Program-made: the position numbers and the translations under genes | The notes under the pieces: generated by a model | The model's database searches: none | What the model was told of the DNA's origin: nothing | What the model saw: only the letters and a program-made list of their open reading frames with translations | IMG/VR virus record: IMGVR_UViG_3300045988_154997 | Span: 37,871-101,870 of that record | DNA length: 64,000 nt | Source of the DNA: a virus | Taxonomy: Duplodnaviria; Heunggongvirae; Uroviricota; Caudoviricetes | Strand: one strand, 5' to 3' | Shown here: positions 6,655-34,477 of the stretch, in pieces | Numbering within the stretch: position 1 is the first letter of the stretch | Layout of the letters: each line of letters begins with the position of its first letter

Positions 6655-6711
6655 TTGTGAAAACAGGCACTAATGGCAACAGTGGTTAAACCTATACAAC
6701 AATCCTGTCTT

Positions 6712-7193: not shown

Positions 7194-7219
7194 GATAGGT
7201 AAGTAAATACTTATTATTG
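7194..7219. promoter_or_regulatory. dispersed motif copy (GATAGGTAAGTA + TAAGTA-aa-TACTTA)
   Basis: Contains the reverse complement of TACTTACCTATC and a TAAGTA..TACTTA palindrome; just downstream of the gene ending at 7225. Confidence 0.35.
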
Positions 7220-7224
7220 TATTT

Positions 7225-7515
7225 TTATTCGGTTGTGACTTTTTTGATCAAGGCCACTCTACGACTAGGTGTTCTTGTGATGGTGGCAGTGAATTGTTTC
7301 GCTTGGATAGTAATGGTTTCGTTCTCCTTAAGTTGCCCGTAGCGAGTTTCCACCAGGGTGCCAAGACGCCACAGACCATCATCGATACGTTTATGACTAG
7401 CAAATTTAATCAGCAACAGTTTTACGACTAACTGACCTACGTAAAAGGCGAATGCGACTCCGGCCGCTAAGAAATAGGTGACCAACCACCATTCCCAAGA
7501 AGTTAACTTGCTCAT
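7225..7515 (-). CDS. small membrane protein (hypothetical)
   Basis: 96 aa with hydrophobic segment WEWWLVTYFLAAGVAFAFYVG; start overlaps the upstream stop as ATGA. Confidence 0.5.
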   Translation of the reverse strand: MSKLTSWEWWLVTYFLAAGVAFAFYVGQLVVKLLLIKFASHKRIDDGLWRLGTLVETRYGQLKENETITIQAKQFTATITRTPSRRVALIKKVTTE

Positions 7516-7664
7516 TTTTTCACCTTTGTTTCATGAACTACTCGATACACGCGCTTTCCGATGCACAGTGTTTTGGTTTTAAGTTCCTGCTTAATCAAAT
7601 CATGACAGATGCCGAAGCCGATAAGGAAGCCAGCCATAAAAGCCAATGAGATGTATGGAATCAT
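7512..7664 (-). CDS. small hydrophobic protein (50 aa; below the ORF-track size cutoff)
   Basis: Hand-translated MIPYISLAFMAGFLIGFGICHDLIKQELKTKTLCIGKRVYRVVHETKVKK; ATGA overlaps at both ends. Its start lies inside the 17-mer motif. Confidence 0.35.
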   Translation of the reverse strand: MIPYISLAFMAGFLIGFGICHDLIKQELKTKTLCIGKRVYRVVHETKVKK

Positions 7665-7876
7665 TTAAAGGCTCCTGATTCTACTAATTGCTGTAGCAAT
7701 AATTTCCCTTTATCAGTTAACTGGTAGTTGGCCGAGCGCCACGTTTCAGAAACGTTTGCAACCAACCCTAAACGCTCTAACTTAGCTCGCGTTTTAGGCT
7801 TCCAGTACTCAGGGAACTCCGGCCACTTACTTATTTCATGAAGCGTTTCTTTCTCCCGTTTACTTAATACGATCAT
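7661..7876 (-). CDS. hypothetical protein
   Basis: 71 aa ORF; start overlaps the ligase stop (7873-7876), translationally coupled. Confidence 0.45.
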   Translation of the reverse strand: MIVLSKREKETLHEISKWPEFPEYWKPKTRAKLERLGLVANVSETWRSANYQLTDKGKLLLQQLVESGAFK

Positions 7877-9195
7877 TCTTTATCTCCGATTCGATCTTCG
7901 GTATCGCGTAAGCAACGCGGCCATTTCAGTCGTGGGTGGCGTAAGCTGCCATCAGGTGTTTTCTCGTGACAATGAACCTCGACAATACGACCACGGTACT
8001 TCTCTTTGTTGTTCCAGATCTCGTCCAGATATTTATGCTTAATGCCGCTCGCACGAACGATGACGCCGTTTTCAAGACGAATAACAATTTTCCCAAGCGT
8101 GTTGGCAAAACCAGAGTCCGGGTCGCCCGGCTCAAAATCGATAATTTCACCATCTTCTGAATCTTCGTCTTTTAACTTCCACCAGCTGCGGGTACGTTTA
8201 AACTCGTAAACAGAGTTCGGATCTTTGCCCATCTCCCCTTCTTCGTTATCGTCCAGGCGTTTCATGAAGCGTTCGATGAAGTCTTCGTGGCTATGGATGA
8301 TGTAGAACGGATGCAGGTGAATGTCTTGTGCGTAGCCTTCACTGCGATCGTTTTTGAACAACGCCACGAGCATAGCCAGGCGCTCTTTCAGCTTCATACC
8401 TGTCTTTGCATACTCTTTGGATTTAGCCTGTGCTCGCCATTCCGGTAGGAAGAAGTCGAAAACATGATAAATAGCGCCAATTGCCTGCACGTTCTTTTTG
8501 CGCAATGCAGATACGGACTGGTTAAATGAACCGGCTGTGCCTTCACCATCGAAGAAGATGTGTTTGTGGCCTGAAAGTTTGCCTAATTCGAGCATGGCTG
8601 GCTTTAGGTGATCGAGAGACGTGATTGGATTACCAGTACGAGAAAGGAAGTTAACCTCTTCTTCGTCAACAATAACCTCGCAAATTACTCGCAAACCATC
8701 GAGCTTAAGGCTGCCAATCATCGGCCATTTTGCTTTAGGGTTTGGCTTGAAGGGGTATTTGTCGCCTTTTTCTTTATACGGTGACGCCAGCTGCACCTCG
8801 AATTTCGGAATGGGATTTTCAAAAACCTTGTTGCATAGGCTAATCCCAACGCCAGCTTTCGGATCTTTTAAGAGGAAACGACGGAAGACGTCCTGCCCAT
8901 CGGCGCACATTGACGCCACGATAGACTCAACAGCAGCTATTGCTGCGTTCCCCGTCAGCTCGCGAGAGGCCAGCTTATTCAGTACATCAATGGCTTTTTC
9001 GTCACTTGGGACGGACTCACTAAGCGGCTCTGCCACTTTGTATTTCTTTACCCCAAAACGGATGAAAGGGTTGAGCATCAATGAAACCATGCTTTGTTCA
9101 AAGTCATCCATGTTGGCCAATGCCTCTTTTTTTGCATTGGTTCCCATAGCTTTCATTTCGTCCAGCTTATGCTTAAGTGCGATCAACTTTTTCAT
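7873..9195 (-). CDS. ATP-dependent DNA ligase
   Basis: Adenylation motif I KLDGLR (SLKLDGLRVICEV); C-terminal GSLRHPRLKWPRCLRDTEDRIGDKE typical of ATP-dependent ligase OB-domain ends. Confidence 0.8.
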   Translation of the reverse strand: MKKLIALKHKLDEMKAMGTNAKKEALANMDDFEQSMVSLMLNPFIRFGVKKYKVAEPLSESVPSDEKAIDVLNKLASRELTGNAAIAAVESIVASMCADGQDVFRRFLLKDPKAGVGISLCNKVFENPIPKFEVQLASPYKEKGDKYPFKPNPKAKWPMIGSLKLDGLRVICEVIVDEEEVNFLSRTGNPITSLDHLKPAMLELGKLSGHKHIFFDGEGTAGSFNQSVSALRKKNVQAIGAIYHVFDFFLPEWRAQAKSKEYAKTGMKLKERLAMLVALFKNDRSEGYAQDIHLHPFYIIHSHEDFIERFMKRLDDNEEGEMGKDPNSVYEFKRTRSWWKLKDEDSEDGEIIDFEPGDPDSGFANTLGKIVIRLENGVIVRASGIKHKYLDEIWNNKEKYRGRIVEVHCHEKTPDGSLRHPRLKWPRCLRDTEDRIGDKE

Positions 9196-9662
9196 TGTTG
9201 TTTTGCCTCCATATGTTGATCGATTTGCTCATGTGTTTCTTTTGTTGTTTCTTCAATCAACGCCGCATACACGTCAGTGATCGCTGTTTGTGATGTGGCG
9301 CTCTTCTTAACCATGCTATTAATCGTTACACTGTCACGTTTTCGTTTTATAGTTCTGGCTTGTTTATTCCGTTCTTCAACCTCCTTAATGAGTGCGGTCA
9401 TATCTTCGTAATACAGAGATTCTCCTTTACGAATCTCTTCAACCATCATTTTTAACGCCTTGCATTTGCCTGCTTTAATAGCGGTTGCGCACGACTGGAA
9501 AGACGTTCGAGGAAGACGGTTTTCTTTGAAGGCAAGAATGGTGTGCTGGCAAACGGAGTAGCTGCAATATGCCGACTCACCGTTTATCTTTACTTCCTCA
9601 CAACGAAGTGAATAACCGTTATTTCCTGAAATAGAAGGGATTTTTGACAAATCAGCTTTCAC
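9192..9662 (-). CDS. Cys-rich hypothetical protein
   Basis: 156 aa with clustered cysteines (YCSYSVC, SCATAIKAGKC); overlaps the ligase start by 4 nt. Confidence 0.45.
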   Translation of the reverse strand: MKADLSKIPSISGNNGYSLRCEEVKINGESAYCSYSVCQHTILAFKENRLPRTSFQSCATAIKAGKCKALKMMVEEIRKGESLYYEDMTALIKEVEERNKQARTIKRKRDSVTINSMVKKSATSQTAITDVYAALIEETTKETHEQIDQHMEAKQQ

Positions 9663-9684
9663 AATTACCGCCAGAAATAATCTT

Positions 9685-9700
9685 GTGCTTACCTATCATT
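9685..9700. promoter_or_regulatory. dispersed motif copy GTGCTTACCTATCATT
   Basis: Exact 16-mer shared with 3563-3578, in the intergenic region between minus-strand genes. Confidence 0.4.
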
Positions 9701-9729
9701 ATTTGCGTAAAAAACGACACACAGAGAGC

Positions 9730-10512
9730 TTACCAACTTCCCCAGCTAATCATCTTGCGCTGATCGCTTTCTAAGCGATAGGGGGCAAGAAGCTCTGTGA
9801 CATGATTGGTGGCGTATGATTTGGCCTCTTGCTCTATCATCGGTAATTCGTTAGCAATCCTGACCATCTTCCCAGCAAATTCCGCCATTACGCCATCACA
9901 CGCCTTACCCGCATCAACAATGATATGCACAAGATCCAACTGGCTTTTGCACATGTCCCAAAGAGTCGAATATTCGCTCTCCCTGATTAGATTTACAGCA
10001 TCATTAGCCCCTTTATTAATCAAAACCTCCAACAGATTTGTCGGGGTGACGAAATCGGCTTTCAGAGACAATGTTGGTTCAGCTTTTACCGACAGCAAGT
10101 AATCTTCAAAGTTTTGCTTGTCTTCCAGCAAAGCTAAACTACGCATAGCTCGAATTGATTCTCGAATAACGGCTTCAATATGTTCGTCACCTGGAGGACA
10201 GATAATGGTATCTGTATAGATGACTCTGCCATCAAACCACGTCCCAACCTGCACTTTTAGAGTTCGTAAGTTTTCTTTGCGTACAAAAACAACTAATGCA
10301 GAACGTCGTGCATGTGCAGGTTCGCCCCATACGCACAACTTAACCTTCAGATAAGGTAGCCCCGGTAGCGGGATCTCGACCAAACGAGTGGCGATATGAT
10401 CCATTGCCGTATTGACGGCTTTTCCAATGATGTCTAGCCGATTGCTCTCGCTGATTTCTAAACCAGTTTTATCAATGATGTTGCAGGCTAATCTCTTAAT
10501 TTCTTCTTTCAT
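9730..10512 (-). CDS. hypothetical protein
   Basis: 260 aa ORF, no motif recognised. Confidence 0.45.
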   Translation of the reverse strand: MKEEIKRLACNIIDKTGLEISESNRLDIIGKAVNTAMDHIATRLVEIPLPGLPYLKVKLCVWGEPAHARRSALVVFVRKENLRTLKVQVGTWFDGRVIYTDTIICPPGDEHIEAVIRESIRAMRSLALLEDKQNFEDYLLSVKAEPTLSLKADFVTPTNLLEVLINKGANDAVNLIRESEYSTLWDMCKSQLDLVHIIVDAGKACDGVMAEFAGKMVRIANELPMIEQEAKSYATNHVTELLAPYRLESDQRKMISWGSW

Positions 10513-10553
10513 ACCAACTCCTAGCTAACGGATGAAAGTATTCTTACAAAAAC

Positions 10554-10580
10554 TTAAGTATGTATATACTTATCATTTTA
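10554..10580. promoter_or_regulatory. dispersed motif copy TAAGTA-tgtata-TACTTA + TCATTTTA
   Basis: Palindromic motif in the intergenic region upstream of the 9730..10512 gene. Confidence 0.35.
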
Positions 10581-10637
10581 GGTGCAATAGTTCTTTATAC
10601 TAAGATGCCGGGCGTATCCGCAGCCCAGCATTCACCT

Positions 10638-11051
10638 TTAATGAGCTACAGCCTCACTGTTGCACATCTTTCTGTAGACCTGCTTATAACGCTGTAAATC
10701 ATGAGGATCATTAGGTGCCAACGACTTCGATAGGATTTTGTATACCACCCCTTTTGAAAACATGCCCTTTGGCTTCATTTCGAGTTCAACAACATATGAG
10801 TGATAGCCCACGTATGCACCAAAGCCATTTTTGGCGTTTAATTCACCACACACAAAGCCTGTCACACTCCCATCATCATGATCAGTCCTGACAAACTTAT
10901 CTTTCCTAAACATCACCGACGTGGGATCTTTCATATCATCCGCAATTGCCTGTTGGCCCAGAGTAATAGCCTTCTCGTCTGTAGGCTTACACCCAACTAA
11001 TGCAAACAAAGACAATAAAGCACCTGTTAAAATCAACTTCTTTTTGCTCAT
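10638..11051 (-). CDS. lipoprotein (hypothetical)
   Basis: Signal peptide with lipobox MSKKKLILTGALLSLFALVGC. Confidence 0.55.
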   Translation of the reverse strand: MSKKKLILTGALLSLFALVGCKPTDEKAITLGQQAIADDMKDPTSVMFRKDKFVRTDHDDGSVTGFVCGELNAKNGFGAYVGYHSYVVELEMKPKGMFSKGVVYKILSKSLAPNDPHDLQRYKQVYRKMCNSEAVAH

Positions 11052-11284
11052 TTTGACTTCCCTTTATTTATATTTATCGTAGGTATTAGTTAACCAAAAC
11101 ACGAGCCGTGTCACAATAATTCCATAGCTCATTATTTCCATCGGTGATTAATATCACATCAACTTTACAGTTCATAAATTAAATTATCAAAGCTGACAGA
11201 TTAACTAAATTTAAGTACCCTTTTCGCACACTTGACGCTTGCCGCGTCTAAACTGTTCATCCTATATCAACAGAACAAAAAAAC

Positions 11285-12430
11285 ATGAAATACATAAAAT
11301 CTTCATCGTTGCTGGCATTAACTTTGCTTTTTAACTCTGGATTCGTTAACGCAGACAATAAACAAACGCTGATAGAAGCCGCTACCGCAGGGGATACCGC
11401 AGCACAAAGTGAGTTAGGTACAAATTATTTTGATGGTGTCAATGGTTTTGATAAGGATGTAGTTGAGGCCAAGAAGTGGATTGATCTAGCTGCAGAAAAG
11501 GGAGATAAAGTAGCATATTATGCACTTGGAGTTATGTACACATTTGGCGAGGGTGTAGATAAAGACCTAAATAAAGCTGTTGAGTACTACAAACTTGCGG
11601 GGGATGCTCGTGAAGGTAGAGCCTACAACAATCTTGGTGCTATTTATCAAAAGGGGATGCTTGGTAAAGTAGATCATGCACTCGCCATTAAATACTTCAA
11701 ACTAGCCTCTGATGCCGGGTATGTTAAAGCAACTTCAGTTCTTGGGGCGTATTACCAATATGGTAAAGGCGTTAAAAAGAATTATAAAAAGGCTTTTACT
11801 TATTACAAAAAGGCGGCAGACCAAGGCAGTTCAGAAGCTATGATAGGATTAGGAATACTATACGATGATGGGTTAGGCGTTAAACGCAATGATGCAGAAG
11901 CAGTTAAGTGGTATAAAAAGGCAGCGGAACTTGGAAACGCCGACGCCATAACCAATCTTGGCATTATGTATGAGAATGGGGAAGGTGTAAAAAAGGACTA
12001 TAAAAAAGCAGCCGACCTTTATCAGACTGCTTGCGATAAAGGAGAAAAAAGAGGCTGCGATTACATTGCAGAACTGAAAGAAAGCGGCAAATATCGAGCG
12101 CCGGCTTCCAAAGCCAAAACAAAATCCGCCACCCAGCGACTTATTGCTAAATCCATTGATAAGGGCGTTAACGCTACATTTACCTGGCAGGGTGATGATG
12201 CTACCTTCACCGCTAATGATGGCAAAGTTGACTGCACCTTCCTGAAGGATTTTTCAGAGAAAGGAGGCAATCTGGCTACCTCGTTTGTTTGCACCGACAA
12301 CGTTCAAATCATCCTGAAGCAATTCAGAGATACCAAGAATGCCTACCTCGCGGTAATGACTGACAACTTCAACACAGAAGTTAAATCATTTTCGGTCAAT
12401 GTGTACGTGACTAATACTGGTTCAAACTAA
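11285..12430 (+). CDS. secreted Sel1-repeat (TPR-like) protein
   Basis: N-terminal signal peptide; several Sel1-type repeats (AxxGxxxAxxxLGxMYxxGxGVxKDxxKAxxWYKKAAxxG). Encoded opposite to its neighbours. Confidence 0.75.
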   Translation: MKYIKSSSLLALTLLFNSGFVNADNKQTLIEAATAGDTAAQSELGTNYFDGVNGFDKDVVEAKKWIDLAAEKGDKVAYYALGVMYTFGEGVDKDLNKAVEYYKLAGDAREGRAYNNLGAIYQKGMLGKVDHALAIKYFKLASDAGYVKATSVLGAYYQYGKGVKKNYKKAFTYYKKAADQGSSEAMIGLGILYDDGLGVKRNDAEAVKWYKKAAELGNADAITNLGIMYENGEGVKKDYKKAADLYQTACDKGEKRGCDYIAELKESGKYRAPASKAKTKSATQRLIAKSIDKGVNATFTWQGDDATFTANDGKVDCTFLKDFSEKGGNLATSFVCTDNVQIILKQFRDTKNAYLAVMTDNFNTEVKSFSVNVYVTNTGSN

Positions 12431-23228: not shown

Positions 23229-26200
23229 TTATTCTTTAGGTGAATTTAACTTCGTTTCAAGCTCCTCAACCCTTTTGGTCAATTGCTGAATATGATGAAT
23301 GAGTGGTACAACCAAACGCTCATACATCACTCCTTCAGCGACCATACCATTTGAGGAAATATCTCCTGGAGAATCATTATTTGTTGGTTCACGCCAATGG
23401 ACATATTGCGGGGCAATCTCACCAACCTCTTCAGCAATAAGGCCGTAATACCCCCAATCCTTTCGGTCACCTCGACAAATTGAACGATACCAAACAGGTC
23501 TTAATGACAAAAGTTCATCAGCATATCGATCTTGTAATGTTTCAATATCCTTTTTATAGCGCCTTGAAGATGTTGAACGCCAAACTGTATTGATACCTGG
23601 GTTTGGATCAATGTACATATTGGCACCGCTAGTAGTTGTGCCAATATCCCATATAGCAAACCCTCCACTACCGCCTGATTTGACAACCAGTGTTTCAGCA
23701 ATAATATCCAGGTTGCCACTATAGCCTGTCAGTGATGATCTGCTTGCATAGGAACTTAGAAGGTTTGTTACCTCTGTTTTCGTATAAGCATTAAGGTTAG
23801 CCGCAGTCAAAGTAATATCGGCAGAGCCATCAAACGCCACACCAGCAATTTTCCTTGCTGTCTGCAATTTTGTGGCTGTTGCGGCATTACCAGTAGTATT
23901 CTGATTACCGGTTGTATTCACACCAGGGATTGAATCCTTAGCGGTATATACCTGCGCCCACGCTGACCATGCCGCATCAGTGGTATCTCTTCTGGAGCGA
24001 ATGAAAACCGGCGCATGTGCACCGCTCGTACCACTCCAGCCAATAAGCAACTCGCCCTCACCAGCAGCACTCGCACCTTTCATGTGCAATACGTTGCCAT
24101 ACGTGGTCGGGTAGCTATTGTTGTACGCCTCGTACATTTGAATGCCAGCAGTACCTTGAGTAGAACCGCTTAAAGCCGTAACTCGACCACGAGAAACCAA
24201 TGTATTAATATTGATATCACCTGAACCATCAAACTTAACACCATTGATGTTTCTCGCTGTTTGCAACTTCGTAGCTGTTGAAGCATTGCCATTCAAGCTA
24301 CCATTTACGCCACCAGTAACATTTAGTCCATTACCAATAGACACAACACCGCTGCTATTATTAATTATAATCGGTCGCAAACTGTTCCATGAACCTAACG
24401 TATCTCCTGATGCTGTTAGCATGAAATATGTGCTGCCGCCGTCATTACGGATAAAGAACCCGTAGTTACCGTAAGCAATGCGGAAACCATTTGCATATTT
24501 TGAAACGATCTCACCAGAAGACGTTAACCCTCCAGATAATGTGCCACCTGAAAGCGGTAATGCTCCTACATCAGAAGCTGTTGGTTTGTTTCTAGTGTTA
24601 TAAGAACGACGCCAGCCTGGTGCATAATCACTTCCATTGTACACATAAATAAATTCCGCATTGTTAACACCACCATGACCCGATGTTGTTGTCGTTGTAA
24701 CACGAATAGTGTAGTGGCTTGTTGCCTTATTACTAAACACCTCAATCACGGAACCAGATAGATCGATCCTACCGCAACCAGTGTCGTCTATATAATTATT
24801 GTTGGCGTAAGTCCATGAGCACCGTGCGATCCAATGTTTGTTTGTAAATGCCCCCTGATTATTTAGCCAAGTTATAAATTGAGCAGTCGTAAATGCCGTT
24901 CCGTTACCACTATTTAACCATCCAGCGGCAGCGGTTGGCGCGTTTATATCAGCCGGCTGAGGCATAAATCCAGTCGTGTAAACCTGCTCCCAACCACTTT
25001 CAAAACCATAGCCATCTCTTGAGGAACGGTAGAACAGACCACCATTTTTATAGTGAGCTTTAATTTGAAGCGTACGGCAACTACCTACACCGGTATAAAA
25101 GTTGGCAAGAATATAACTGTCGCCTGTTCTAGTTACATTGTAAGCACCAGATTCAGCATTCCACGGCACGCCACCATCAGCATCCGCATATGACCCTGTT
25201 GCCCTTCTTGCGAAAGCGGCAACATGCGCAGCGGTTAAAGTGATATCAGTAGAACCATCAAATGGAACACCGGATATTTTTCTTGCAGTCTGAAGTTTTG
25301 TAGCAGTTGCAGCATTACCAGTGGTGTTCTGATTACCCGTAGTGTTTACACCTGGAAGGTTGATATTTGCAGAACCGTCGAAACCAACTCCACCGATAGA
25401 TCTTGCCGTCTGCAATTTCGTTGCTGTACTTGCATTACCATTTAATGTTCCGGTGATCCCACCAGTAACAGACAACGGACCTGAAACTGTTCCTCCGGTT
25501 GTTGGCAGTGCTCCAATATCTAACGGCGTCGGTTTCTGATGTGTGCTATACATCGTATAAACAACACCATCGGTAACGCTGGAAGGCTTACTCGCTGAAT
25601 ATGTTGGCGATGTATAAATAGAAACTGACGCATTTGCAGTACAATCCCAATGGATATTTACACTCGTCGCATAATTGCCAATTTCAACGTAAATATCATA
25701 TGTATCGCCGGATGTGTTGATCCAGGCGAAATTCGTTAATCCGACAGCTGTACGCTTCCACAAAGCACCTGTAATCCCTTTGGGGTTTCCATTGCCTGCT
25801 CGTAGAACCAGTTCTGAAATGCCTGCCTGATGTGGGGAGCCGACGTTGTAACCAGCGCCACCAATCAATGCGATGTAAACGATGGAACTCGCTTGTGGCA
25901 TTGTAACAGTAGCCAGTTTGAACCACCCGGCCCCGCCAGAGAAAGACATCGTTATTGAATTTAAAGTACCAATATCTTTCGGCGTTAATGTGATATCCGC
26001 AGTCAGTGCTTTCCCGTTAATTTTTCGGTTAGATGGCACCCTGCTGTTCGCATTGTCATTGACTACTTTAACTGCTTTTGGCGTTGCGGCCAGCGATTCA
26101 CTGGTGCTGTCGACAGCACTGCTAAGTTTCACAACACCTTTAGTTGTAAGGCTTGCGTCTTCCATCGCAACTGCACCGGCAATCTCTTCAGCACGATCAG

Positions 26201-27527
26201 CAGCAGCTTCCGCACGGGTCGCAGCGGATTCAGCAGCAGTTTTGCTCTGAGATGCTGCCGTCGCACTGCCTGCCGCCTCTGTTGCTTTCGTGGATGCCGT
26301 CGTGGCGCTGCCCTTCGCTGCTGACGCCTGTCTGGTCGCCTCATCTTTTGAAGCAGACGCAGATGATGCCGATGACGCCGCCGAACTGGCGGACGATGCG
26401 GCAGCCGTTTTTGAGGATTCTGCGCTGGTTTCCGACGCTTTCGCGTTCGTTTCGGATGTCTTCGCTGCGGAAGCAGACCTCGCTGCTGCGCTGGCCTGTT
26501 CAGTGGCTTCGCCAGCCTTCGTTGTGGCTGTTGAAGCAGACGATGCGGCACTTTCTGCCGATTTTCCGGCGGCGGTGGCACTGGCTGAGGCCTGCCCGGC
26601 ACTTGTTGACGCGGCACTGGCAGACGACGCAGCCGCTGTTTTTGAGCCTGCCGCAGCCGAGGCGCTCTGTCCCGCTGCCGTTTCAGAAGACCTGGCGTTC
26701 GTCTCGGACGTTTTTGCCGCCTTCGCGGAATTTCCTGCCGCCGTTGCCGAGGAAGCGGCATTACTGGCGCTCGAGGCTGCGCTCGTTTCTGATGATTTCG
26801 CTGCCTCTTTTGAGGCCGCCGCATCCCGGGCTGAGGTGGCAGCTTCTGACGCCTTCGTGGTCGCGGTGGATGCAGAAGTGGCTGCAGATTTTTGTGACGC
26901 TGCAGCATTCGTTTCAGACGTTTTCGCGGCACCGGCACTGGTGGCCGCCGCGCTTTTTGAGGACTCTGCAGCGGATGCACTTTGAGACGCTTGAGAGGCT
27001 TTTTCTCCAGCGGTATTGGCGCTTTCTGCTGCTGCGGCAGCACTGGCCGCCGCCTCACGAGCTTTGTCGCCAGCAGCATCAATCGCGTCAGTGTTATTTT
27101 TATACCACTCAACGTTTTCGTTGTGCTCGTTGACGATCTGCATTAGCGGCTTAACGGTCACTTCTGTACCGTCTTCACGCTCGATTGTCACCTCATCCAG
27201 AGCAGTCAACCAACTGCGCATGGACTTGGAATCAGCCGACATACGCGACATTAGTGCTGTAAAGCGCGCGCTAAACTGTGTTAAGTCGCCTTCATAGGTC
27301 GTAATGATTCGGCACGGAACTTCAGACTGAGTTTCGCCGGTATAAGGTTCTGAGAGAACAATGTTCGTATCACTGGTTACGCGCTTGATCTCATACAGCT
27401 TATTGTCGGGGCCAATGACGATCATCCCCGGCAACACACCATTAGCTGTTACGTTCCAGGCTGTCCCTGCCCCAACCAGAGTATTGCTGCCCTGTGTAAA
27501 TGTGATAGTACCTTCCCTGTACCACAT
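23229..27527 (-). CDS. long tail fibre protein with C-terminal intramolecular chaperone (S74-like) domain
   Basis: 1432 aa: N-terminal Ala/Ser-rich low-complexity region, four copies of a GNASTATKLQTARxIxGVxFDGSxDI fibre repeat, C-terminal RYKKDIE...GLIAEEV autoproteolytic chaperone-like domain. Confidence 0.8.
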   Translation of the reverse strand: MWYREGTITFTQGSNTLVGAGTAWNVTANGVLPGMIVIGPDNKLYEIKRVTSDTNIVLSEPYTGETQSEVPCRIITTYEGDLTQFSARFTALMSRMSADSKSMRSWLTALDEVTIEREDGTEVTVKPLMQIVNEHNENVEWYKNNTDAIDAAGDKAREAAASAAAAAESANTAGEKASQASQSASAAESSKSAAATSAGAAKTSETNAAASQKSAATSASTATTKASEAATSARDAAASKEAAKSSETSAASSASNAASSATAAGNSAKAAKTSETNARSSETAAGQSASAAAGSKTAAASSASAASTSAGQASASATAAGKSAESAASSASTATTKAGEATEQASAAARSASAAKTSETNAKASETSAESSKTAAASSASSAASSASSASASKDEATRQASAAKGSATTASTKATEAAGSATAASQSKTAAESAATRAEAAADRAEEIAGAVAMEDASLTTKGVVKLSSAVDSTSESLAATPKAVKVVNDNANSRVPSNRKINGKALTADITLTPKDIGTLNSITMSFSGGAGWFKLATVTMPQASSIVYIALIGGAGYNVGSPHQAGISELVLRAGNGNPKGITGALWKRTAVGLTNFAWINTSGDTYDIYVEIGNYATSVNIHWDCTANASVSIYTSPTYSASKPSSVTDGVVYTMYSTHQKPTPLDIGALPTTGGTVSGPLSVTGGITGTLNGNASTATKLQTARSIGGVGFDGSANINLPGVNTTGNQNTTGNAATATKLQTARKISGVPFDGSTDITLTAAHVAAFARRATGSYADADGGVPWNAESGAYNVTRTGDSYILANFYTGVGSCRTLQIKAHYKNGGLFYRSSRDGYGFESGWEQVYTTGFMPQPADINAPTAAAGWLNSGNGTAFTTAQFITWLNNQGAFTNKHWIARCSWTYANNNYIDDTGCGRIDLSGSVIEVFSNKATSHYTIRVTTTTTSGHGGVNNAEFIYVYNGSDYAPGWRRSYNTRNKPTASDVGALPLSGGTLSGGLTSSGEIVSKYANGFRIAYGNYGFFIRNDGGSTYFMLTASGDTLGSWNSLRPIIINNSSGVVSIGNGLNVTGGVNGSLNGNASTATKLQTARNINGVKFDGSGDININTLVSRGRVTALSGSTQGTAGIQMYEAYNNSYPTTYGNVLHMKGASAAGEGELLIGWSGTSGAHAPVFIRSRRDTTDAAWSAWAQVYTAKDSIPGVNTTGNQNTTGNAATATKLQTARKIAGVAFDGSADITLTAANLNAYTKTEVTNLLSSYASRSSLTGYSGNLDIIAETLVVKSGGSGGFAIWDIGTTTSGANMYIDPNPGINTVWRSTSSRRYKKDIETLQDRYADELLSLRPVWYRSICRGDRKDWGYYGLIAEEVGEIAPQYVHWREPTNNDSPGDISSNGMVAEGVMYERLVVPLIHHIQQLTKRVEELETKLNSPKE
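26130..27110. repeat. low-complexity GC-rich coding repeat (Ala/Ser/Thr-rich part of the tail fibre)
   Basis: Repetitive GCx codon runs; produces three long artefactual antisense ORFs in the six-frame track. Confidence 0.7.
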
Positions 27528-27571
27528 GTTGAATATGCTCCTTGATTTGGTGGGCTATCCTTGCCCACCAT

Positions 27572-27590
27572 TAAGTATGTACCTACTTAT
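27572..27590. promoter_or_regulatory. dispersed motif copy TAAGTATGTACCTACTTAT
   Basis: Between the J stop and the tail-fibre start; preceded by hairpin GGTGGGC-TATCCTT-GCCCACC (27549-27569). Confidence 0.35.
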
Positions 27591-27619
27591 TTTTACCGAT
27601 ATAAATATTTTTTTCTACA

Positions 27620-30600
27620 TTACAGAAGGCCAATTCTTACTCGTAGGACGTTGTTATCGTCATAAACGTCAATCCGCTGACCATTTATGACCAGTCGCCC
27701 ATTACCCCCGCTATTACCGTTGATCTCAAGCGTTCCATTTTTGCCGAACCGCCATCCAGATCTACCGCTAACAAAATTGGTAGATTGCAGATCGCCTACT
27801 TTTGCATTGGTGATTGTGCCATCCTTGATATACGCACCATTCATATAGGCGATACTGTTTTCGATAACAAATGGCGTGGTGATCTTCCCGTTAACAGAGT
27901 TGACCAAACCAAACCTGTCAGCCTGCACCAAAAACTGAGAAAGGCCAGTGGTGTCGATACCAAGCGCAATACCAGCAACATACTTCTGCCCTCCGCTCGT
28001 TGAAGTTTCCATTTTCAACGTCCACGCGGTTGACACTTTTTTGTTGGTATCAGCAATAGCTGTTGCCTGCTGTTGAATTGTCGCGGTATTTCCATCCACC
28101 TCTGCTTTCAGAGTATCGATTCGCCCACTCAGAGCATTATCTGCCTGCGTTCTCGCTGTCGTTTCAGTTGTTACCGCCGCGGAAATGTTGGCTGCCGTTT
28201 GAGACTCTAAGTTTGTGATTTGAGTCGCCAATGCAGCATCTTGCTCTGTACGCGTTTTCGTTTCGGTTGCTACAGCCGCTTTAATATCCTCTTTGTATTG
28301 AGAGGTCAGCTTGGTGATCTGAGACGACAACGCCGAGTCAGCATCAGTTCGAGCCTGCGTTTCAACTGCAACGGCCGCACTAATATCTTTCGCTGTCTGT
28401 GCTTTTAAACTTGAAACCTCTTTTGTTAAAGCGGTATCACCATCAGCACGAGCCGTTGTTTCTCTGGCAAGAGATGCCTCGAGATCATTAGCTTTTGCTG
28501 TAAGAGACGAAATCTGAGTGGACAATGCACTATCGGCATCAGTCCTTGCCTTTGTCTCTACAGCAACCGCTGCGGCAATATCAGTTCCGGTTTGTGCTCG
28601 CAGGCTGTTAATTTCTCGTGAGAGCGCCTGGTCAGCACTTGCTCTGGCCTCCTGCTCCTGAGTGATGGCAGCGGATATATCACCGTCAACCTTTGACTGA
28701 AGCTGGTTTATTTGTTTGGCTAACGCAGAGTCCCCGCTTGCTCGGGCCTCCTGCTCACTACGTATTGCAGCAGAAATATCATCATCAACCTTTGCCTGAA
28801 GTTGGGTGATCTGGCTTGCCAGAGCCGAATCTTCCGTTGCTCGGGCTTCTTGCTCTTCCTTAATAGCTGCGACGATATCGTTGCTTACTTTCGACTCAAG
28901 CTGAGTGATCTGTGTCGTCAGAGCTTCATCGGCAGATGTGCGAGCCTCCTGCTCTGTACTAATCGCCGCGCTGATATCTCCTTCAAACTTAGATTGCAGC
29001 TGAGTGACACGCTTTGCCAACGCTTCATCGCCATCGGCACGAGCGGTGGACTCTTCCAGAATACTGGCCTTAATGTCTTCGCCAATTTCTACGCGAATTT
29101 CCTCAACCTTCGTGGCCATTGCAGACATATCATCAGCAAAGGTTTTCTGTGTTGTTGCGATCTTCGCGTTATTGACCATCTGCTTGTGCTGGTCTTCATC
29201 TTGACGAAGAGCCAGGTCAATATTTGTTTTGGCTAACGCCTCAATGTTCGTAGTCAGTTCTGCACTGGCACGATCGACCTCTGCAACCGTCTTTTTCATT
29301 TCTTCAACGGCAGCGGAGCTTTCCTCTACCGTTGACTGCAACACTTCCAGTTGTTTAGCGTTTGCAGCATCGCCTTCAACACGAGCCTCGCTTTCCTTAG
29401 CAATAAGAGCCGCCGCTTCATCTCTTGCAGCCTTTATTGCCTCGACTGTATTAGCGAGAGCTTTATCGTGTTCAGATACGGTGTTTTCGATTTCAACAAT
29501 TGCAGCATCAGTAGCATCAATTTTTTCAAACGCTTCATTGACCTTGTCGATCGTTGCCGAAACCTCACCTTTAAGCTCGGTTTGTGCGTTCTCCAAAGCA
29601 TCGCTACGCTCGTTGAATTTTATTTCAAAACCCGCGAGGTTATCGCTGAACTGCTTATCTAATTCAGCTATATCTTCCTTAACGTCGTTTACCGACCCCT
29701 CCAAAGATTCGACGCTCTGGTTGATATGCTCATTTAACTCGTCAACTGCTTCTTGAGAGGCTTTGCTGTTGATGTCCTCAAGCAGAGCCTGACCAAGCTC
29801 GGAAGATGTAATTTTGCCAGCCAGGAACGACAGTACATCGCGAGTTGTCGCCTCTGTACCCAAGTTTGAGTTCGGAGGGCTTAACATACCTCGCTTGTTC
29901 GATGCTCGAACCCAGTAATACCACGTTTCGCTATCCCCAAGACCAGCATGTGTAAAGGTGGTGCTTGCAGACTCTGCGATCAGTTTCGCCGTATCCAGAT
30001 TGTTGGTCTGGGATGCGTAAACATTAATGTGATCAAGGTCTACCGAATCTGGATTAACCCAATTCAGTATCACATTACGATAGTCTCCAACGGCCGTTAA
30101 TGACGTTGGTGCATCCGGCGGTGTCATTGTGCCCAGCACCTGATAAACGGTACTGATAATTTCTGTTTTTTTACCGTTGAATGAAACCGCATACAGTTGG
30201 AAGTCGTAGCGTCCATTCTCCGCGACATTAACGATTTCGTATTGCTCTTCGGTTACACGCGCCGATTGCCAGTTCGATACATTGTTTTCATCAGAACGTC
30301 GCCAACTGATCCAATACTCTGGAGATTTCCCTTCCCATGTTGCAGTCAGTTTTACTGACAGGTTGCCCGGGCTTGAGAGGTAAGTCCCTTCAGTGATTTG
30401 CAAATTAGACGGCTTGGAGTAAGTCGGGTCCAATACCGTCGTATTCTGCGGGATAAGCGTTGCACCATTGTCGATCGCCTCATATTTAGACGGATTGTTT
30501 TCAACAGCGGTGATGTCAAAGCTACCCGACGTTTCCCCCTGAGCGATGTTAACGATGCGAACGCGCATAGGTTCGAGATCTGGTTCTGTAATTGTCCAGA

Positions 30601-32350
30601 CACCGTTCAAAACAGGCGTTTCCGCTGACGACAGAGCTTTTGAAAACGTAACCTTTGTTATGTTTTCGCCAGTTTCAAGAACATCGCGCTCAACGATTTT
30701 GCCTTCCTGATTCAATATCCGAATAAAGCTGCCGCTTTTAGCTAACGACACAGGCGCATCGAGAGTGATGCTGTTTTTGGTAAACTCCACAATTCGACCG
30801 GAGTTACGTTTACCTGCACGATATTTGTTCTGAATCAGAACGGTTTCACCGGGCATCAGAAATGAGGCGTCTAAGCCGGCAGTAAATGTAATTACATCCG
30901 ACTCCATTCTGGCGGTATACAAAAGCCACAAACCAACTCGGTGAGCCTGGCCTCGGCTTGTACATCCAAATGCTACGACTTCTGTTTTACGCTCACCATA
31001 ACGGCGCATTGCGTCCTGATCTTCAACGTACTCGATATTTTGCTTATAACCGTCCTCCTTGTTGTTGTAGGTTACGAGCGCAACGGATGGGCGATCTTTA
31101 CGCGCAGAACCTTTATAGGTAAACAGTCCATCTTTGACGTTGGAGTTGGTAAACATCATTACCGGATCTGATGGGCTATCCTGCATGATGTTAACCATGC
31201 CACCAGCCCAAAACACCATGCCGCGGAATGCACCGGCAATATCCTGAATTAATCGGTATGCGTCTTGTCGACTGGTGATCTGCGTATTGATTGCAAAGCG
31301 TTTCTCTTTACCCCCAAAGCCATCATCGACCTCTTCGTCACAATATCGACCAATCTGGTAGAGCTGGCCGAGGTCAATCATGGATTCCGACACAAATTGC
31401 CCAAGACCATACCGAGTATTGGTAAGCAAATCGTAGAGAATCCACGCAGGGTTTGAAGAAGACAACAGCTTAAAAGTACCGTCCCATACGCCGACATAAG
31501 TATTGGTGTATTCGTTGTAGTTTGACGGTACTCGGATTTTGATACCGCGCACCAAATACGAACGGGAAGGCATTGTGCTACCAAACTGCTCTGAATTGAC
31601 CTTCAAGCCAACAAGAGCAGAGTTAGGGTAGTTCATTGGCGTGTCGACAATCTCACCGATGGAATCAACCCATGTGTCGTTGTAGAGGTACTGGCTACTG
31701 TTATCATCTGTAAGACGAATCACCCTAACCTTGTATGCACGACCAGGCTTAGGTAGTTTCAGCTCATAGCTACGGTAATACACGCCTGTTTTCTTTGCCG
31801 TTAGCGTGATATCAACGCTTTTCTCACCTTCTGCCACCACATCAGAAAATGTTGCGTCTCCGTTGGCGATCTGGAATTTGTACTTCACCGTAGTGCCATT
31901 TGTATCGCCAGAGCTTTTATCAACGCTACGTAAAGAGGGGAATTTCATGATGACACGAACGCGATCAGCTTCATCGTTATCGATTGAAACCGTAACGTCG
32001 TGTGTTTTTTTAAGCTGAATATTTACGGACTTAGGCGTTTCAACAAAATCAAAACCAGCCATTGGCGTCTGGTCTTGTGAGCCGTCACGAAAATCCCATG
32101 TAATACCGCTGAAGTTGGAAGAGCCATCTTCATTCAAGATCGGTAAATCGTCGATGAAGATCGACTTTGCGCCATTTACCAGGCCACCGATAACCCCCTC
32201 GCCAAGAAGGTCGAGGATGGCTGCCATAGCACGAGAATTGACAGTATCATCAGCTTCAACCGGGGTACGGCTGGAGCTTTTACTTTTCTTGCCACCAGCA
32301 CCGGCAATAAGAAGCGGTAATTTTTTCTTCTTGAACTGTTCCATGTCCAA
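27620..32350 (-). CDS. J: central tail fibre / tip attachment protein J with inserted tandem-repeat region
   Basis: N-terminal half aligns by eye to lambda gpJ (YPNSALVGLKVNSEQFGS, AFGCTSRGQAHRVGLWLL, KYVAGIALGIDTTGLSQFLV); contains ~10 tandem ~33-aa repeats. Confidence 0.85.
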   Translation of the reverse strand: MDMEQFKKKKLPLLIAGAGGKKSKSSSRTPVEADDTVNSRAMAAILDLLGEGVIGGLVNGAKSIFIDDLPILNEDGSSNFSGITWDFRDGSQDQTPMAGFDFVETPKSVNIQLKKTHDVTVSIDNDEADRVRVIMKFPSLRSVDKSSGDTNGTTVKYKFQIANGDATFSDVVAEGEKSVDITLTAKKTGVYYRSYELKLPKPGRAYKVRVIRLTDDNSSQYLYNDTWVDSIGEIVDTPMNYPNSALVGLKVNSEQFGSTMPSRSYLVRGIKIRVPSNYNEYTNTYVGVWDGTFKLLSSSNPAWILYDLLTNTRYGLGQFVSESMIDLGQLYQIGRYCDEEVDDGFGGKEKRFAINTQITSRQDAYRLIQDIAGAFRGMVFWAGGMVNIMQDSPSDPVMMFTNSNVKDGLFTYKGSARKDRPSVALVTYNNKEDGYKQNIEYVEDQDAMRRYGERKTEVVAFGCTSRGQAHRVGLWLLYTARMESDVITFTAGLDASFLMPGETVLIQNKYRAGKRNSGRIVEFTKNSITLDAPVSLAKSGSFIRILNQEGKIVERDVLETGENITKVTFSKALSSAETPVLNGVWTITEPDLEPMRVRIVNIAQGETSGSFDITAVENNPSKYEAIDNGATLIPQNTTVLDPTYSKPSNLQITEGTYLSSPGNLSVKLTATWEGKSPEYWISWRRSDENNVSNWQSARVTEEQYEIVNVAENGRYDFQLYAVSFNGKKTEIISTVYQVLGTMTPPDAPTSLTAVGDYRNVILNWVNPDSVDLDHINVYASQTNNLDTAKLIAESASTTFTHAGLGDSETWYYWVRASNKRGMLSPPNSNLGTEATTRDVLSFLAGKITSSELGQALLEDINSKASQEAVDELNEHINQSVESLEGSVNDVKEDIAELDKQFSDNLAGFEIKFNERSDALENAQTELKGEVSATIDKVNEAFEKIDATDAAIVEIENTVSEHDKALANTVEAIKAARDEAAALIAKESEARVEGDAANAKQLEVLQSTVEESSAAVEEMKKTVAEVDRASAELTTNIEALAKTNIDLALRQDEDQHKQMVNNAKIATTQKTFADDMSAMATKVEEIRVEIGEDIKASILEESTARADGDEALAKRVTQLQSKFEGDISAAISTEQEARTSADEALTTQITQLESKVSNDIVAAIKEEQEARATEDSALASQITQLQAKVDDDISAAIRSEQEARASGDSALAKQINQLQSKVDGDISAAITQEQEARASADQALSREINSLRAQTGTDIAAAVAVETKARTDADSALSTQISSLTAKANDLEASLARETTARADGDTALTKEVSSLKAQTAKDISAAVAVETQARTDADSALSSQITKLTSQYKEDIKAAVATETKTRTEQDAALATQITNLESQTAANISAAVTTETTARTQADNALSGRIDTLKAEVDGNTATIQQQATAIADTNKKVSTAWTLKMETSTSGGQKYVAGIALGIDTTGLSQFLVQADRFGLVNSVNGKITTPFVIENSIAYMNGAYIKDGTITNAKVGDLQSTNFVSGRSGWRFGKNGTLEINGNSGGNGRLVINGQRIDVYDDNNVLRVRIGLL
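28060..29010. repeat. tandem ~99-bp repeats inside the J gene (encode the 33-aa DISAAIxxEQEARxxAD repeats)
   Basis: Near-identical segments recur with 99-bp spacing (e.g. GCTCGGGCCTCCTGCTC at ~28737 and ~28836). Confidence 0.7.
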
Positions 32351-32361: not shown

Positions 32362-32952
32362 TTACATAAGCTGGTCGATGGTGATAGAAGAACTCACGAC
32401 CTGTGAGCCAACTAAAATTTCCTCGCCATAGATAAGCTGTACAGGGTTCCCCTGGTTTGTTGTGTTTTGAGGTCCATCAAAGTAATAAGAGTTCGAGTTA
32501 TCCGCCTGCCTCACACTTTCGTTAGTGGCTTGCGGAGATATGATTTGCGCTATACCGCCCATCATCAGTGACAAACCGAGAGGCGCAAGAGCGGGCACCC
32601 ATATCGAGGCAACCATTAATACTGCTCCAACAACCGTCTGAAACCATCCAAAAGCAGATCCACCACTTCCTCGCGGAACAGGGGTAATGCGGATTTTTGC
32701 AATATTGTCAGACTGCCCCATCATCTGATATTCACTCTCGTCCACAGACCACTTGTGGCCCTGTTTATTGGTGATCTGGATGTGGTATCTGTCATAGGTT
32801 TTGATATTGCGCTTCATCCATGCTTTAAACCCAGGCTTGTTGGCCTCAATTAAATCCAGAGCCTGTTTTGTATTACGCACCTTTAGATGCCAGTGGCGGC
32901 CAAAATGTTTGGCCATAGGGCCTCCAAGCTGCACATGAACTAACTCAGACAC
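32362..32952 (-). CDS. I: tail assembly protein I
   Basis: C-terminal GPQNTTNQGNPVQLIYGEEILVGS matches lambda gpI GPVNTVAQGNPVPLLYGEMIVGS; position between K and J. Confidence 0.7.
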   Translation of the reverse strand: MSELVHVQLGGPMAKHFGRHWHLKVRNTKQALDLIEANKPGFKAWMKRNIKTYDRYHIQITNKQGHKWSVDESEYQMMGQSDNIAKIRITPVPRGSGGSAFGWFQTVVGAVLMVASIWVPALAPLGLSLMMGGIAQIISPQATNESVRQADNSNSYYFDGPQNTTNQGNPVQLIYGEEILVGSQVVSSSITIDQLM

Positions 32953-33764
32953 GTCTCATCTCCCTTGAGCAAGTCTCTGTGACGCAAGTGATGCGTCGTA
33001 TGTTTCTGATACATTCCGCCGTAATAAGCACGACAACTTAGGCGGTCGATCTGGTGATGAAGAATCATTCCATCGCCGATATAAACCGCGCAGTGGTCAG
33101 GCATTTTCCCGTATTGGATAAAGAATACGTCCCCACGTTGAGGCTCTGTTCCGGGCGCAAGACGCACCAATCCCTCGTTACGGTAGTTCTGATCGAGAAT
33201 GTCGTTATCGCCGGTGTACCACGATGGAATATGCAGGTGTGCGTTCGGGTTTAGTTCGACGTTAAACTCACGCTTCAAATAGTCCCGACACAACATCCAG
33301 CAATCAAATACGCCAAATACATACGGTCTGCCCAGGTATGGCATTTCGAAACCATCAGGTGTGATCACATTCATCTCGCTAAAATGGAAAGGGGCATCTC
33401 CCTCAACATTCTTGCGAATAGCCAGAATCATCCACGGAACTTCCGTCGTTTCGCAGCCTGCACGATCGGCATAAGATGCTTCTGCTGATTCATCAGTATG
33501 TGAATGCCAGATTGCGATAACATCACCCGCATCCTCTGCCGCCATAATGTCGTCAACGTGCATTACAAAAGTGTTCTGCGGGTTCTCCGAAACATTCCGC
33601 GCTTCCATAAAGCGATATTTGTCGCCATTAGTTCTAACCAGAAAGCCACACGCTTCATTAGGGTAGCGATTTATGGCGCAGAGATAGATTTGCTGCATAA
33701 CGTCAGAGCCAAGCTCAGGGATTGCTTTATTACCCATACCGCGTAGCTCCAATAAATCCGCCAA
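32940..33764 (-). CDS. K: tail assembly protein K (JAB/MPN + NlpC/P60 domains)
   Basis: ACGFLV and HSHTDES (JAB-like), GDVFF...HCAVYIGDGMILHH (NlpC/P60-like); lambda K position. Confidence 0.75.
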   Translation of the reverse strand: MADLLELRGMGNKAIPELGSDVMQQIYLCAINRYPNEACGFLVRTNGDKYRFMEARNVSENPQNTFVMHVDDIMAAEDAGDVIAIWHSHTDESAEASYADRAGCETTEVPWMILAIRKNVEGDAPFHFSEMNVITPDGFEMPYLGRPYVFGVFDCWMLCRDYLKREFNVELNPNAHLHIPSWYTGDNDILDQNYRNEGLVRLAPGTEPQRGDVFFIQYGKMPDHCAVYIGDGMILHHQIDRLSCRAYYGGMYQKHTTHHLRHRDLLKGDETCLS

Positions 33765-34428
33765 AATGGATCACACCGTCGGCAAAATAATTCCGACGCG
33801 CATTACAGGCGTCATAACGTTTTGTGCAGTAATCCGCACCAGACATAGACGTCTGCTGGTTATTTTTGTCGAAATATGGACCGGTATAGCCGCATTCTGG
33901 CCCTCGGTATTTCCACGGGCAGGTGTTTTTAATGATCTGACGATACGGCAGTTGCACCCCCATCAAATCGAACACACTGGACAATTCAAACTCGACAACC
34001 TGATGAGTTTCGAGAGTTTTCTGTTCGATAAACCACATTTCATCCGGGAAATGTTGGTTTGGATCTGCTGTTGGGTTGCCGTCTTTAAAATTAACGGCAT
34101 CGAGGAAGCGAGCCAGCGTCATCTTGCGAATAATGCGGCAGCCAACAAGATCGTCGTTCGCCTGAACTTCCGCAGAGACGGTTCCGGCAAAGTTCGATAC
34201 CTGAATTTTTGGACGAGGCAACGTTCCCTGGCCCGTTTTGTCAAAGCCTGATGCTTTTATTGGCCACGGCTCGTATGTCACTCCTTGCCAGACGACCGGT
34301 TGCATCAGTTCGTTTGTTCCGGCGTGGAAGAATAGCTTCCCCCCTGAAGTTGTGTTCGACATATCCAGTACGAACAACTCAATGAGTGCAGAGGGAGATA
34401 AGCTCTGAATATCAGCTTTAATTCCCAT
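33730..34428 (-). CDS. L: minor tail protein L
   Basis: ARFLDAVNF and NTCPWKYRGPECGYTGP match lambda gpL; start moved to MGIKAD (34428) with AAGGA upstream, giving 232 aa. Confidence 0.85.
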   Translation of the reverse strand: MGIKADIQSLSPSALIELFVLDMSNTTSGGKLFFHAGTNELMQPVVWQGVTYEPWPIKASGFDKTGQGTLPRPKIQVSNFAGTVSAEVQANDDLVGCRIIRKMTLARFLDAVNFKDGNPTADPNQHFPDEMWFIEQKTLETHQVVEFELSSVFDLMGVQLPYRQIIKNTCPWKYRGPECGYTGPYFDKNNQQTSMSGADYCTKRYDACNARRNYFADGVIHFGGFIGATRYG

Positions 34429-34477
34429 TGTTTCATCCTTGAAATAAGTAGGCGCTAACATCCTGTCAGCGCCACAA

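Follow-up and report, generated by a model that had tools for sequence, protein, structure and literature searches.

Here, we present an analysis of the gene for the central tail fibre/tip attachment protein J in a 64,000-nucleotide (nt) stretch of the IMG/VR virus record IMGVR_UViG_3300045988_154997 (positions 37,871 to 101,870 of that record; this whole stretch is referred to as the window). The window is an SSU5/pHCM2-like Escherichia coli phage-plasmid; over its positions 1-25000, the E. coli plasmids NZ_CP073997.1 and NZ_CP104116.1 (112.6 kb) match it with 100% identity. The J gene encodes, immediately ahead of its C-terminal tail-tip domain, an array of ten tandem units of 33 amino acids (aa), which are well conserved as protein and strongly diverged as DNA. 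We are confident that this array belongs to a coiled-coil shaft of the type found in the central fibres of phage T1 and the F-type pyocins. Based on PHROG, J is assigned to family 31 (central tail fiber J); its gene has 95% nt identity with those of Escherichia phages Cyrano and CMS-2020a, and the record NZ_CP022167.1 is 100% identical over the C-terminal half of J.

The array of 33-residue units in J

J is encoded by a single open reading frame (ORF) of 1576 codons counted from the TTG at 32350. The start codon is more likely the ATG at 32344, which is located two codons into the ORF and 10 nt after an AAGGA sequence, and which yields MEQFKKKK, the annotated N-terminus in relatives; with this start, the J protein probably has 1574 aa. 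Residue numbers of J follow the 1576-aa ORF throughout, and the features of the locus are listed in Table 1.

An earlier sequence-only reading of the window had described about ten tandem 33-aa repeats with the consensus DISAAIxxEQEARxxADxALxxQIxxLxSKV. Both the number and the consensus were accurate. The units start at aa 1092, 1125, 1158, 1191, 1224, 1257, 1290, 1322, 1355, and 1388; the seventh (aa 1290-1321) has 32 residues, the other nine have 33, and the array consensus is D-I-S-A-A-I-x-x-E-x-x-A-R-x-x-A-D-x-A-L-x-x-Q-I-x-x-L-x-S-x-x-x-x. All ten units have the same residue at seven positions (A4, E9, R13, D17, A19, L20, and L27). Within the array, 49% of the residues are identical to those 33 positions further on, compared with 9.9 ± 1.7% in 2000 shuffles (z = 23), and identity at unrelated lags does not exceed 16%.

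At the DNA level, the picture is different. The same reading had taken the units for near-identical 99-bp repeats at about 28060-29010 and had proposed to find them with a tandem-repeat program. Those borders miss the true ones (28091-29077) by about 30-70 nt, and the units are far from identical: pairwise DNA identity among the ten is 39-66% (mean, 51%), and the longest exact word common to any two of them is 12 nt. Tandem Repeats Finder reported only 2.2 copies with a 76% match. Because the array is thus detectable only at the protein level, protein autocorrelation and a hidden Markov model (HMM) of the unit were used to follow it. Among the residue pairs that are identical at lag 33, 61 of 145 share the codon, and synonymous sites are largely randomised between units. 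The arrays of the window and Cyrano differ by eight synonymous codons and one nonsynonymous codon, which reflects purifying selection. Altogether, the units are old duplications that were kept by selection on the protein while their DNA diverged. A literature search for prior accounts of tandem repeats in protein J gave nothing relevant.

Table 1. Positions of J, its parts, and the adjacent tail genes in the window
Feature	Position	Strand	Residues	Remarks
Central tail fibre/tip attachment protein J gene	27620..32350	minus	1576 aa	Single ORF, counted from TTG 32350
N-terminal hub and FNIII part of J	29771..32287	minus	J 22-860	Collinear with lambda gpJ 3-835
FNIII-A_GpJ			J 103-237	Pfam
Phage-tail_3			J 359-522	Pfam
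fn3			J 746-825	Pfam
Proximal helical segment of J	29078..29770	minus	J 861-1091	Heptad-like periodicity, no regular repeat
Ten tandem units	28091-29077	minus	J 1092-1420	33 aa in nine units, 32 aa in one
C-terminal beta-rich tail-tip domain	27623..28090	minus	J 1421-1576	AlphaFold2 strands 1413-1573; Pfam Phage_Tail_Tip
Phage_Tail_Tip (formerly DUF1983)			J 1424-1558	Pfam
gpI-like gene	32362-32952	minus		PHROG 32 tail assembly protein in the upstream tail-tip block (Pfam, PHROG)
gpK-like gene	32940-33764	minus		JAB and NlpC/P60 (Pfam)
gpL-like gene	33730-34461	minus		Phage_tail_L (Pfam)
Side tail fibre gene	23229..27527	minus	1432 aa	Directly downstream of J; Gp34_trimer, Peptidase_S74 (Pfam)
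Side-fibre N-terminal domain, putative attachment domain	27207-27524	minus	Side fibre 2-107	Similarity to F2-pyocin side fibre

The array lies distally in a long predicted helix

The array forms only the distal 329 residues of a 560-residue segment (aa 861-1420) that contains no proline and very little glycine and is predicted by AlphaFold2 to be helical over its entire length (predicted local distance difference test [pLDDT] score, about 75-88). The models are of a single chain, and a trimeric beta-prism alternative lies outside their reach. With single-sequence input, helices were predicted at aa 836-989 and 995-1134; with an alignment of 121 sequences, they were predicted at aa 1093-1204 and 1214-1407 (pLDDT, about 75-85). 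The suggestion in the sequence-only reading of a coiled-coil or fibrous extension of the tail tip is, therefore, right in outline. Hydrophobic residues recur with a hendecad-like period of 3.65 (33/9; three hendecads per unit) in the array and with a heptad-like period of 3.55 in the helical but irregular proximal segment (aa 861-1091). Predicted strands begin at aa 1413, close to the end of the array and the start of the Phage_Tail_Tip domain. In a Foldseek search of the model against the Protein Data Bank (PDB), only the tip domain was recognised, and the top matches were the tail tip fibre of SU10 (7z4b) and lambda gpJ (8xcj/8xci), the latter in its open state, both matching the beta domain.

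The proximal segment shows 7- to 36-aa indels in alignments of relatives. It also contains a block at about aa 1026-1091 (…TNIDLALRQDEDQHKQMVNNAKIATTQK…) that is nearly invariant across all relatives aligned, as well as a conserved element, EARVEGD(A/K)ANAKQ, at aa 986-998 (about 29357-29395), which holds one of the five glycines of the proximal helix. The AlphaFold2 helix is interrupted at this Gly-containing element (aa 990-994).

J has the architecture of T1 gp33 and F-pyocin fibres

Based on BLASTP, aa 22-860 of J are 32% identical to lambda gpJ residues 3-835 (839 aa; E-value, 5e-119), and aa 1421-1509 pair with gpJ residues 841-931. Consistently, FNIII-A_GpJ and Phage-tail_3 were recognised by Pfam with E-values of 1e-29 and 7e-34, respectively; lambda gpJ (8iyk, 8xcj) shares the Phage_Tail_Tip domain; and sequence matches of the hub part in the PDB comprise the F2-pyocin fibre (25vf), T1 gp33 (9l9p), and lambda gpJ (8iyk). 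Between the two matching parts, J has about 560 residues (aa 861-1420) at a point where lambda gpJ has about five. The sequence-only reading had inferred an inserted repeat array between an N-terminal and a C-terminal region that both follow lambda. An extra segment is indeed present at this point, but it comprises 560 aa, with the regular array confined to its distal part, and the likeness to lambda does not extend to the C-terminus. The Pfam domain Ig_GpJ_C (PF12421), which in lambda J matches at residues 1001-1132 (E-value, 4.5e-74) and is the C-terminal LamB-binding domain, has no match in J of the window, which ends 18 aa past Phage_Tail_Tip; the unit HMM, in turn, found no match in lambda gpJ. 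A lambda-like receptor-binding C-terminus was, therefore, rejected: PF12421 is absent, and the end of J aligns with the C-terminus of T1 gp33.

The similarity to T1 gp33 (9l9p) covers the full length of the two proteins, which are collinear; their C-terminal ends (LRVQIG and LRVRIG) align, neither has the receptor-binding domain of lambda, and gp33 contains related units ahead of its tip domain, with three weak matches that include the imperfect duplication EALSREIDQLKAQIGDDIQASLTDIREVIATET. Using phmmer against the PDB, the distal units plus tip domain matched T1 gp33 (9l9p_S; E-value, 3e-29), reaching its last residue, residues 884-1193 of the F2-pyocin fibre (25vf_A; E-value, 7e-25), the "central straight fiber" 9ze4_N (E-value, 4e-17), and also lambda gpJ. 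Unlike J, T1 gp33 has 1172 aa and only about three degenerate units; its residues 821-1172 are unresolved in the structure, and the AlphaFold3 model of them is a fibre about 37 nm long (PMC11945409).

The F-type pyocin central fibre (Pseudomonas aeruginosa PA0641/PyoF CFP; 25vf, 25vj, 26ci) has the same order of hub, fibronectin type III (FNIII) domains, helical shaft, and beta-prism tip. It has one clear 33-aa unit right before the tip domain (residues 1033-1062 of the F2 fibre; 27 bits with the unit HMM) and, in common with J, SxSxxMxxLxS motifs with Glu/Asp-Arg pairs at i+4 and a side fibre with a weakly similar N-domain encoded nearby. However, its shaft has about 165-180 aa and is mostly heptad-based and loosely repetitive, while that of J has 560 aa with ten regular units; also, in F-type pyocins small tip adhesins (PyoF11/F12, PA0642) directly follow the fibre gene, whereas in the window the 1432-aa side fibre is next. 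We conclude that the architecture of J is of the T1 gp33/F-pyocin type and not of the lambda type.

The unit is found far beyond SSU5-like elements. In tblastn searches with aa 861-1576, 1713 phage records were matched, including T1, Burkholderia phage KS9, Pseudomonas phage phiPSA1, and many Klebsiella phages, and with the unit HMM, KS9 gp19 has seven units and T1 has about three that are degenerate. Of 120 homologues from metagenomes and genomes, collected with the C-terminal 485 aa as query, most have 4-7 units and two have 10, and the consensus of their alignment repeatedly spells the 33-aa unit; these proteins are all shorter than 850 aa and many are partial, such that the counts do not represent a distribution for full-length J. 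DUF1983 "tail tip fiber" proteins, such as KS9 gp19 and the one of podovirus SU10 (7z4b), resemble J in having 5-10 copies of AAIxxExxARxxADxALxxxIxxLxA followed by Phage_Tail_Tip, but differ in their N-terminal context, e.g., Phage_T7_tail (PF03906) or stand-alone proteins of 300-850 aa. Specifically, in metagenomic proteins of 590-840 aa (P0042, P0068, P0073, P0080, P0085, and others), the array follows a T7-type tail-fibre N-terminus (PF03906), and in most of them Phage_Tail_Tip follows the array. Because the array is also found behind this N-terminus, the shaft module is common to siphovirus central fibres and podovirus-type fibres. Judged from these sequence matches, the array is no peculiarity of J in the window but a module that recurs widely in central fibres of the T1/F-pyocin type; it represents a known kind of feature, and of the relatives sampled, J has it in the longest and most regular form. 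In three of the pooled homologues (P0011, P0014, and P0020), PF09327 occurs together with the lambda-type PF12421.

J is also mosaic at the DNA level. Compared with Cyrano, DNA identity is 91.5% over codons 1-860 and above 99% over codons 861-1420, and the DNA-level match of CMS-2020a SCU-175 and PhiR41_1 to the J gene is confined to nt 1-2654. The hub half and the shaft/tip half of J are swapped as separate modules. A recombination boundary is discernible within J at about codon 860-884 (window about 29700-29770).

A probable trimeric shaft that may switch its fold

For the F2 and F7 pyocins, three reports from 2026 (PMC12874032; 10.64898/2026.02.24.707460; PMC13455828) describe a J homologue with a trimeric alpha-helical shaft (residues 907-1084 and 921-1083, respectively) between the FNIII domains and a beta-prism, and three side-fibre trimers that dock on this shaft via their OB-like N-terminal domains. 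As described by He et al. (PMC12874032), the coiled coil of the F7 pyocin converts to a beta-prism, by which the fibre shortens, the tip opens, and the tape measure protein is freed; Ala-to-Gln substitutions at buried small positions of the shaft block killing and leave assembly intact. The same paper describes a motif, SxSxxMxxLxS, the orientation of which tracks strand direction and the acidic M residues of which are paired with Arg at i±4; it also identifies the start of the non-switching region after the shaft as the seed of the beta-prism and predicts that 21 of 24 related phage fibres switch (PMC12874032).

Several features of the array in J are reminiscent of this description. All ten units match the motif in reversed orientation at unit positions 4-14 (AAIxxExxARA) and in forward orientation at positions 19-29 (ALxxQIxxLxS), and five units contain a further forward match at positions 12-22. 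In total, aa 1092-1420 contain 26 full matches; 300 shuffles that preserved the composition gave 4.8 ± 2.1, with a maximum of 13. Residues E9, R13, and D17, all invariant, follow the i/i+4 spacing reported for the acidic M positions and Arg, and the array ends three residues ahead of Phage_Tail_Tip, the start of which corresponds to the beta-prism seed of He et al.

In the reading that we consider somewhat the most probable overall, J has a T1/F-pyocin-type trimeric shaft that has been lengthened by unit duplication, carries side fibres, and is possibly a metastable spring. According to this model, the array would make up the distal part (about two-thirds) of a long trimeric alpha-helical coiled coil in the central tail fibre, which would have been extended by ancient duplication of a 33-residue unit consisting of three hendecads, each unit adding about 4.9 nm of helix. 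By analogy with lambda, T1, and the F-pyocins, in which J assembles with 3-fold symmetry, the shaft would be a parallel trimer. The helix rise is 0.148 nm per residue, and the shaft would accordingly span about 83 nm in total, with about 49 nm contributed by the array.

We also suggest that this shaft would carry three side fibres, docked by a conserved N-terminal domain as in the F-pyocins. The N-terminal residues of the side fibre encoded directly downstream of J match residues 3-104 of the F2-pyocin side fibre (25ve_A) weakly (E-value, 5e-4 against the whole PDB; 23 bits). The N-terminal 130 aa are kept in the fibres of 9 of the 10 SSU5-like relatives examined, while the distal parts differ; in the CT01 plasmid, the annotated coding sequence starts differently. 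The two conserved elements of the proximal segment, at aa 986-998 and 1026-1091, are candidate docking sites, by comparison with the acidic kink at Gly955 of the F2 pyocin.

If the shaft switched, the conversion of the coiled coil to a beta-prism would leave the fibre shorter and the tip open, and the tape measure protein would be freed, as in the F7 pyocin. The F-type pyocins are tailocins, whereas J is a virion gene of a phage-plasmid, and fold switching, which has been demonstrated for the F7 pyocin, is here extended to J by analogy; we regard it as plausible but tentative. A number of points speak against this reading, or parts of it. The motif matches within a unit overlap, making the motif test suggestive and not decisive. 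The AlphaFold2 monomer is helical with both deep and single-sequence input, with no beta-prism. Moreover, the shafts of F2 and F7 are mainly heptad-based, have only about 165-180 aa and, apart from their last unit, are only loosely similar to the units of the window, while lambda and T5 are described by He et al. as being without this kind of switch (PMC12874032). In addition, the trimeric state is taken from homologues, the fibre itself being known here from sequence and prediction, and the similarity of the side-fibre N-domain to that of the pyocin, at 23 bits, is weak.

A serious rival is that the array is a static spacer, i.e., a permanently helical and rigid stalk that sets the projection of the tip and the side-fibre site, e.g., through O-antigen or capsule, with neither a switch nor energy storage; the number of units would then adjust the reach. 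The exclusively helical models fit this idea, as does the regular hendecad-like core with L20, L27, I2, and I24, which is typical of stable fibrous coiled coils; the variation by whole units across relatives of different genera (see below) is what would be expected of a length ruler, and lambda and T5 function without such a switch (PMC12874032). On the other hand, core positions 9, 13, and 17 are occupied by the invariant charged residues E, R, and D, and positions 4, 12, and 19 invariably hold small residues, a pattern reported as making the F7 shaft fit both folds. Moreover, the array adjoins Phage_Tail_Tip, the same beta-prism seed domain as in the F-pyocins, and the prediction of He et al. 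for 21 of 24 related phage fibres also argues against a purely static stalk. Altogether, we consider the static spacer possible but doubtful.

The number of units varies among relatives

The sequence-only reading proposed a comparison of repeat numbers among related phages, and the numbers do differ. The search for related loci used one protein as query, and its coverage is limited to SSU5-like relatives plus a few remoter matches; unit counts were cross-checked by protein lengths and alignment, because the HMM built from the ten units of the window under-counts degenerate units (for CMS-2020a SCU-175, 9 strong units compared with 10 in the alignment). The J proteins of SSU5-like elements (SSU5 gp020, pHCM2, pMT1, PhiR41_1, and Cyrano) are encoded by the same gene with the same neighbours and have the same unit as the window. 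In alignments, these proteins are collinear, and the length differences between their arrays are exactly 33 aa or multiples of it. Three units are present in Citrobacter plasmid pRHB20-C16_2, four in Salmonella Typhi pHCM2, five in SSU5 (gp020) and E. coli pEC21Z137-115K, six in Yersinia pestis pMT1, a Salmonella plasmid, and an Enterobacter asburiae plasmid, nine in PhiR41_1 and the E. coli CT01 plasmid, and ten in the window, Cyrano, and both CMS-2020a records. Over the C-terminal 716 aa, the J proteins of Cyrano and CMS-2020a (SCU-107) are 99.3-99.6% identical to that of the window. Among 47 full-length IMG/VR relatives, 23 have ten units and none has more. Thus, the window carries the longest and commonest allele among the sampled SSU5-like relatives.

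Copy number shows no obvious link to C-terminal type or host genus. In the sampled set, a longer C-terminus after the array (268-295 aa, compared with the 156-aa T1-type end of the window), as in pMT1, pHCM2, EC21Z137, and the E. asburiae plasmid, goes with fewer units (4-6). The J proteins of Klebsiella SSU5-like elements (e.g., vB_KpnS_p4727, PQ492289.1, positions 94-12255) are unlike that of the window in being giant (4044 aa) and in having no 33-aa array. About 870 N-terminal aa of these proteins are in common with J of the window (75% nt identity), and about 2500 aa are extra.

The second alternative is that the array is a contingency locus, i.e., a fast-evolving stretch prone to slippage or recombination, in which frequent changes in copy number shift the host range; proneness to repeat-number variation had also been part of the sequence-only reading. 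The exact 33-aa steps among relatives would be compatible with this, as would two close pairs of alleles that are one unit apart: the CT01 protein has exactly 33 residues fewer than that of the window, and PhiR41_1 has exactly one unit fewer than CMS-2020a SCU-175. However, the junction of the CT01 deletion shares only three nt, GAC, and the DNA units, with their low identity, shared words of at most 12 nt, and largely randomised synonymous sites, offer little for slippage to act on. Neither does the allele change among close relatives: in 135 plasmid records, the identity of the J protein is 99% or higher, the relevant region spans 2148 nt in all 21 uninterrupted plasmid rows sampled at 98.7% protein identity or above, and the 23 IMG/VR loci all have ten units. 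Nor does copy number obviously track C-terminal type or host genus, and the data lend no support to an effect on host range, which the sequence-only reading had considered possible. A slippage-prone locus was, therefore, rejected on account of the diverged DNA units and an allele that is constant over many independent assemblies, and we consider it highly improbable. The sole exception to the 2148-nt span is NZ_CP029421.1, in which the C-terminal half of J is found in two pieces over 3401 nt (24825-28225); this implies that about 1.25 kb of inserted DNA, perhaps an insertion sequence element, disrupts J in this record, which is not a change in copy number.

That the length of the array stems from mis-assembled repeats is effectively refuted, because the units share exact words of 12 nt at most, a divergence too great for collapse or expansion, and because ten units are found independently in two phage records, complete plasmids of many laboratories, and 23 IMG/VR contigs.

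Returning to the shaft as a spring, the source of the energy with which non-contractile tails breach the envelope is a long-standing question. The relatives provide a natural series in which one shaft has from 3 to 10 copies of a clean 33-residue unit, in inducible and tractable phage-plasmids of E. coli, Salmonella, and Yersinia. This series makes it possible to test how fibre length depends on unit number, whether the whole or only the distal shaft switches, and whether unit number affects adsorption or ejection; we see the main value of the array in this use of it for testing the newly proposed fold-switch mechanism. We speculate further that each unit could be a quantal element of a fold-switching spring, with a fixed conformational energy and about 4.9 nm of length, such that the allelic series of 3, 4, 5, 6, 9, and 10 units would tune stroke and force to the host envelope and the window would hold the longest known spring, at about twice the switching segment of F7; we deem this extended version unlikely. 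For annotation, the findings imply that the C-terminus of J is of the T1/F-pyocin type with no LamB-type receptor-binding domain, and that the repeats are no assembly or slippage hazard.

Neighbouring genes

The tail-tip genes upstream of J have the order L-K-I-J, which is common to the window, Cyrano, SSU5, and lambda. Downstream, in the intergenic region between the J stop (27620) and the start of the side fibre gene (27527), the coding (minus) strand has a perfect 7-bp inverted repeat, GGTGGGC-N7-GCCCACC, at 27549-27569. It is located just upstream of the AAGGAG ribosome-binding site of the side fibre gene and is not followed by a T-run; it may form an RNA stem-loop or an attenuating structure.

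Another repetitive stretch, about 340 aa long and composed of 36% Ala, 22% Ser, and 11% Thr, is located in the side fibre at about aa 140-480 (window 26090-27110). Its periodicity is that of heptads, with identity peaks at lags of 7, 35, 49, 56, 70, 77, 105, and 112 and a recurring KTSETNA. As a result of this biased composition, long spurious ORFs (26129-27112, 26153-27133, and 26290-26985) are found in other frames and on the opposite strand.

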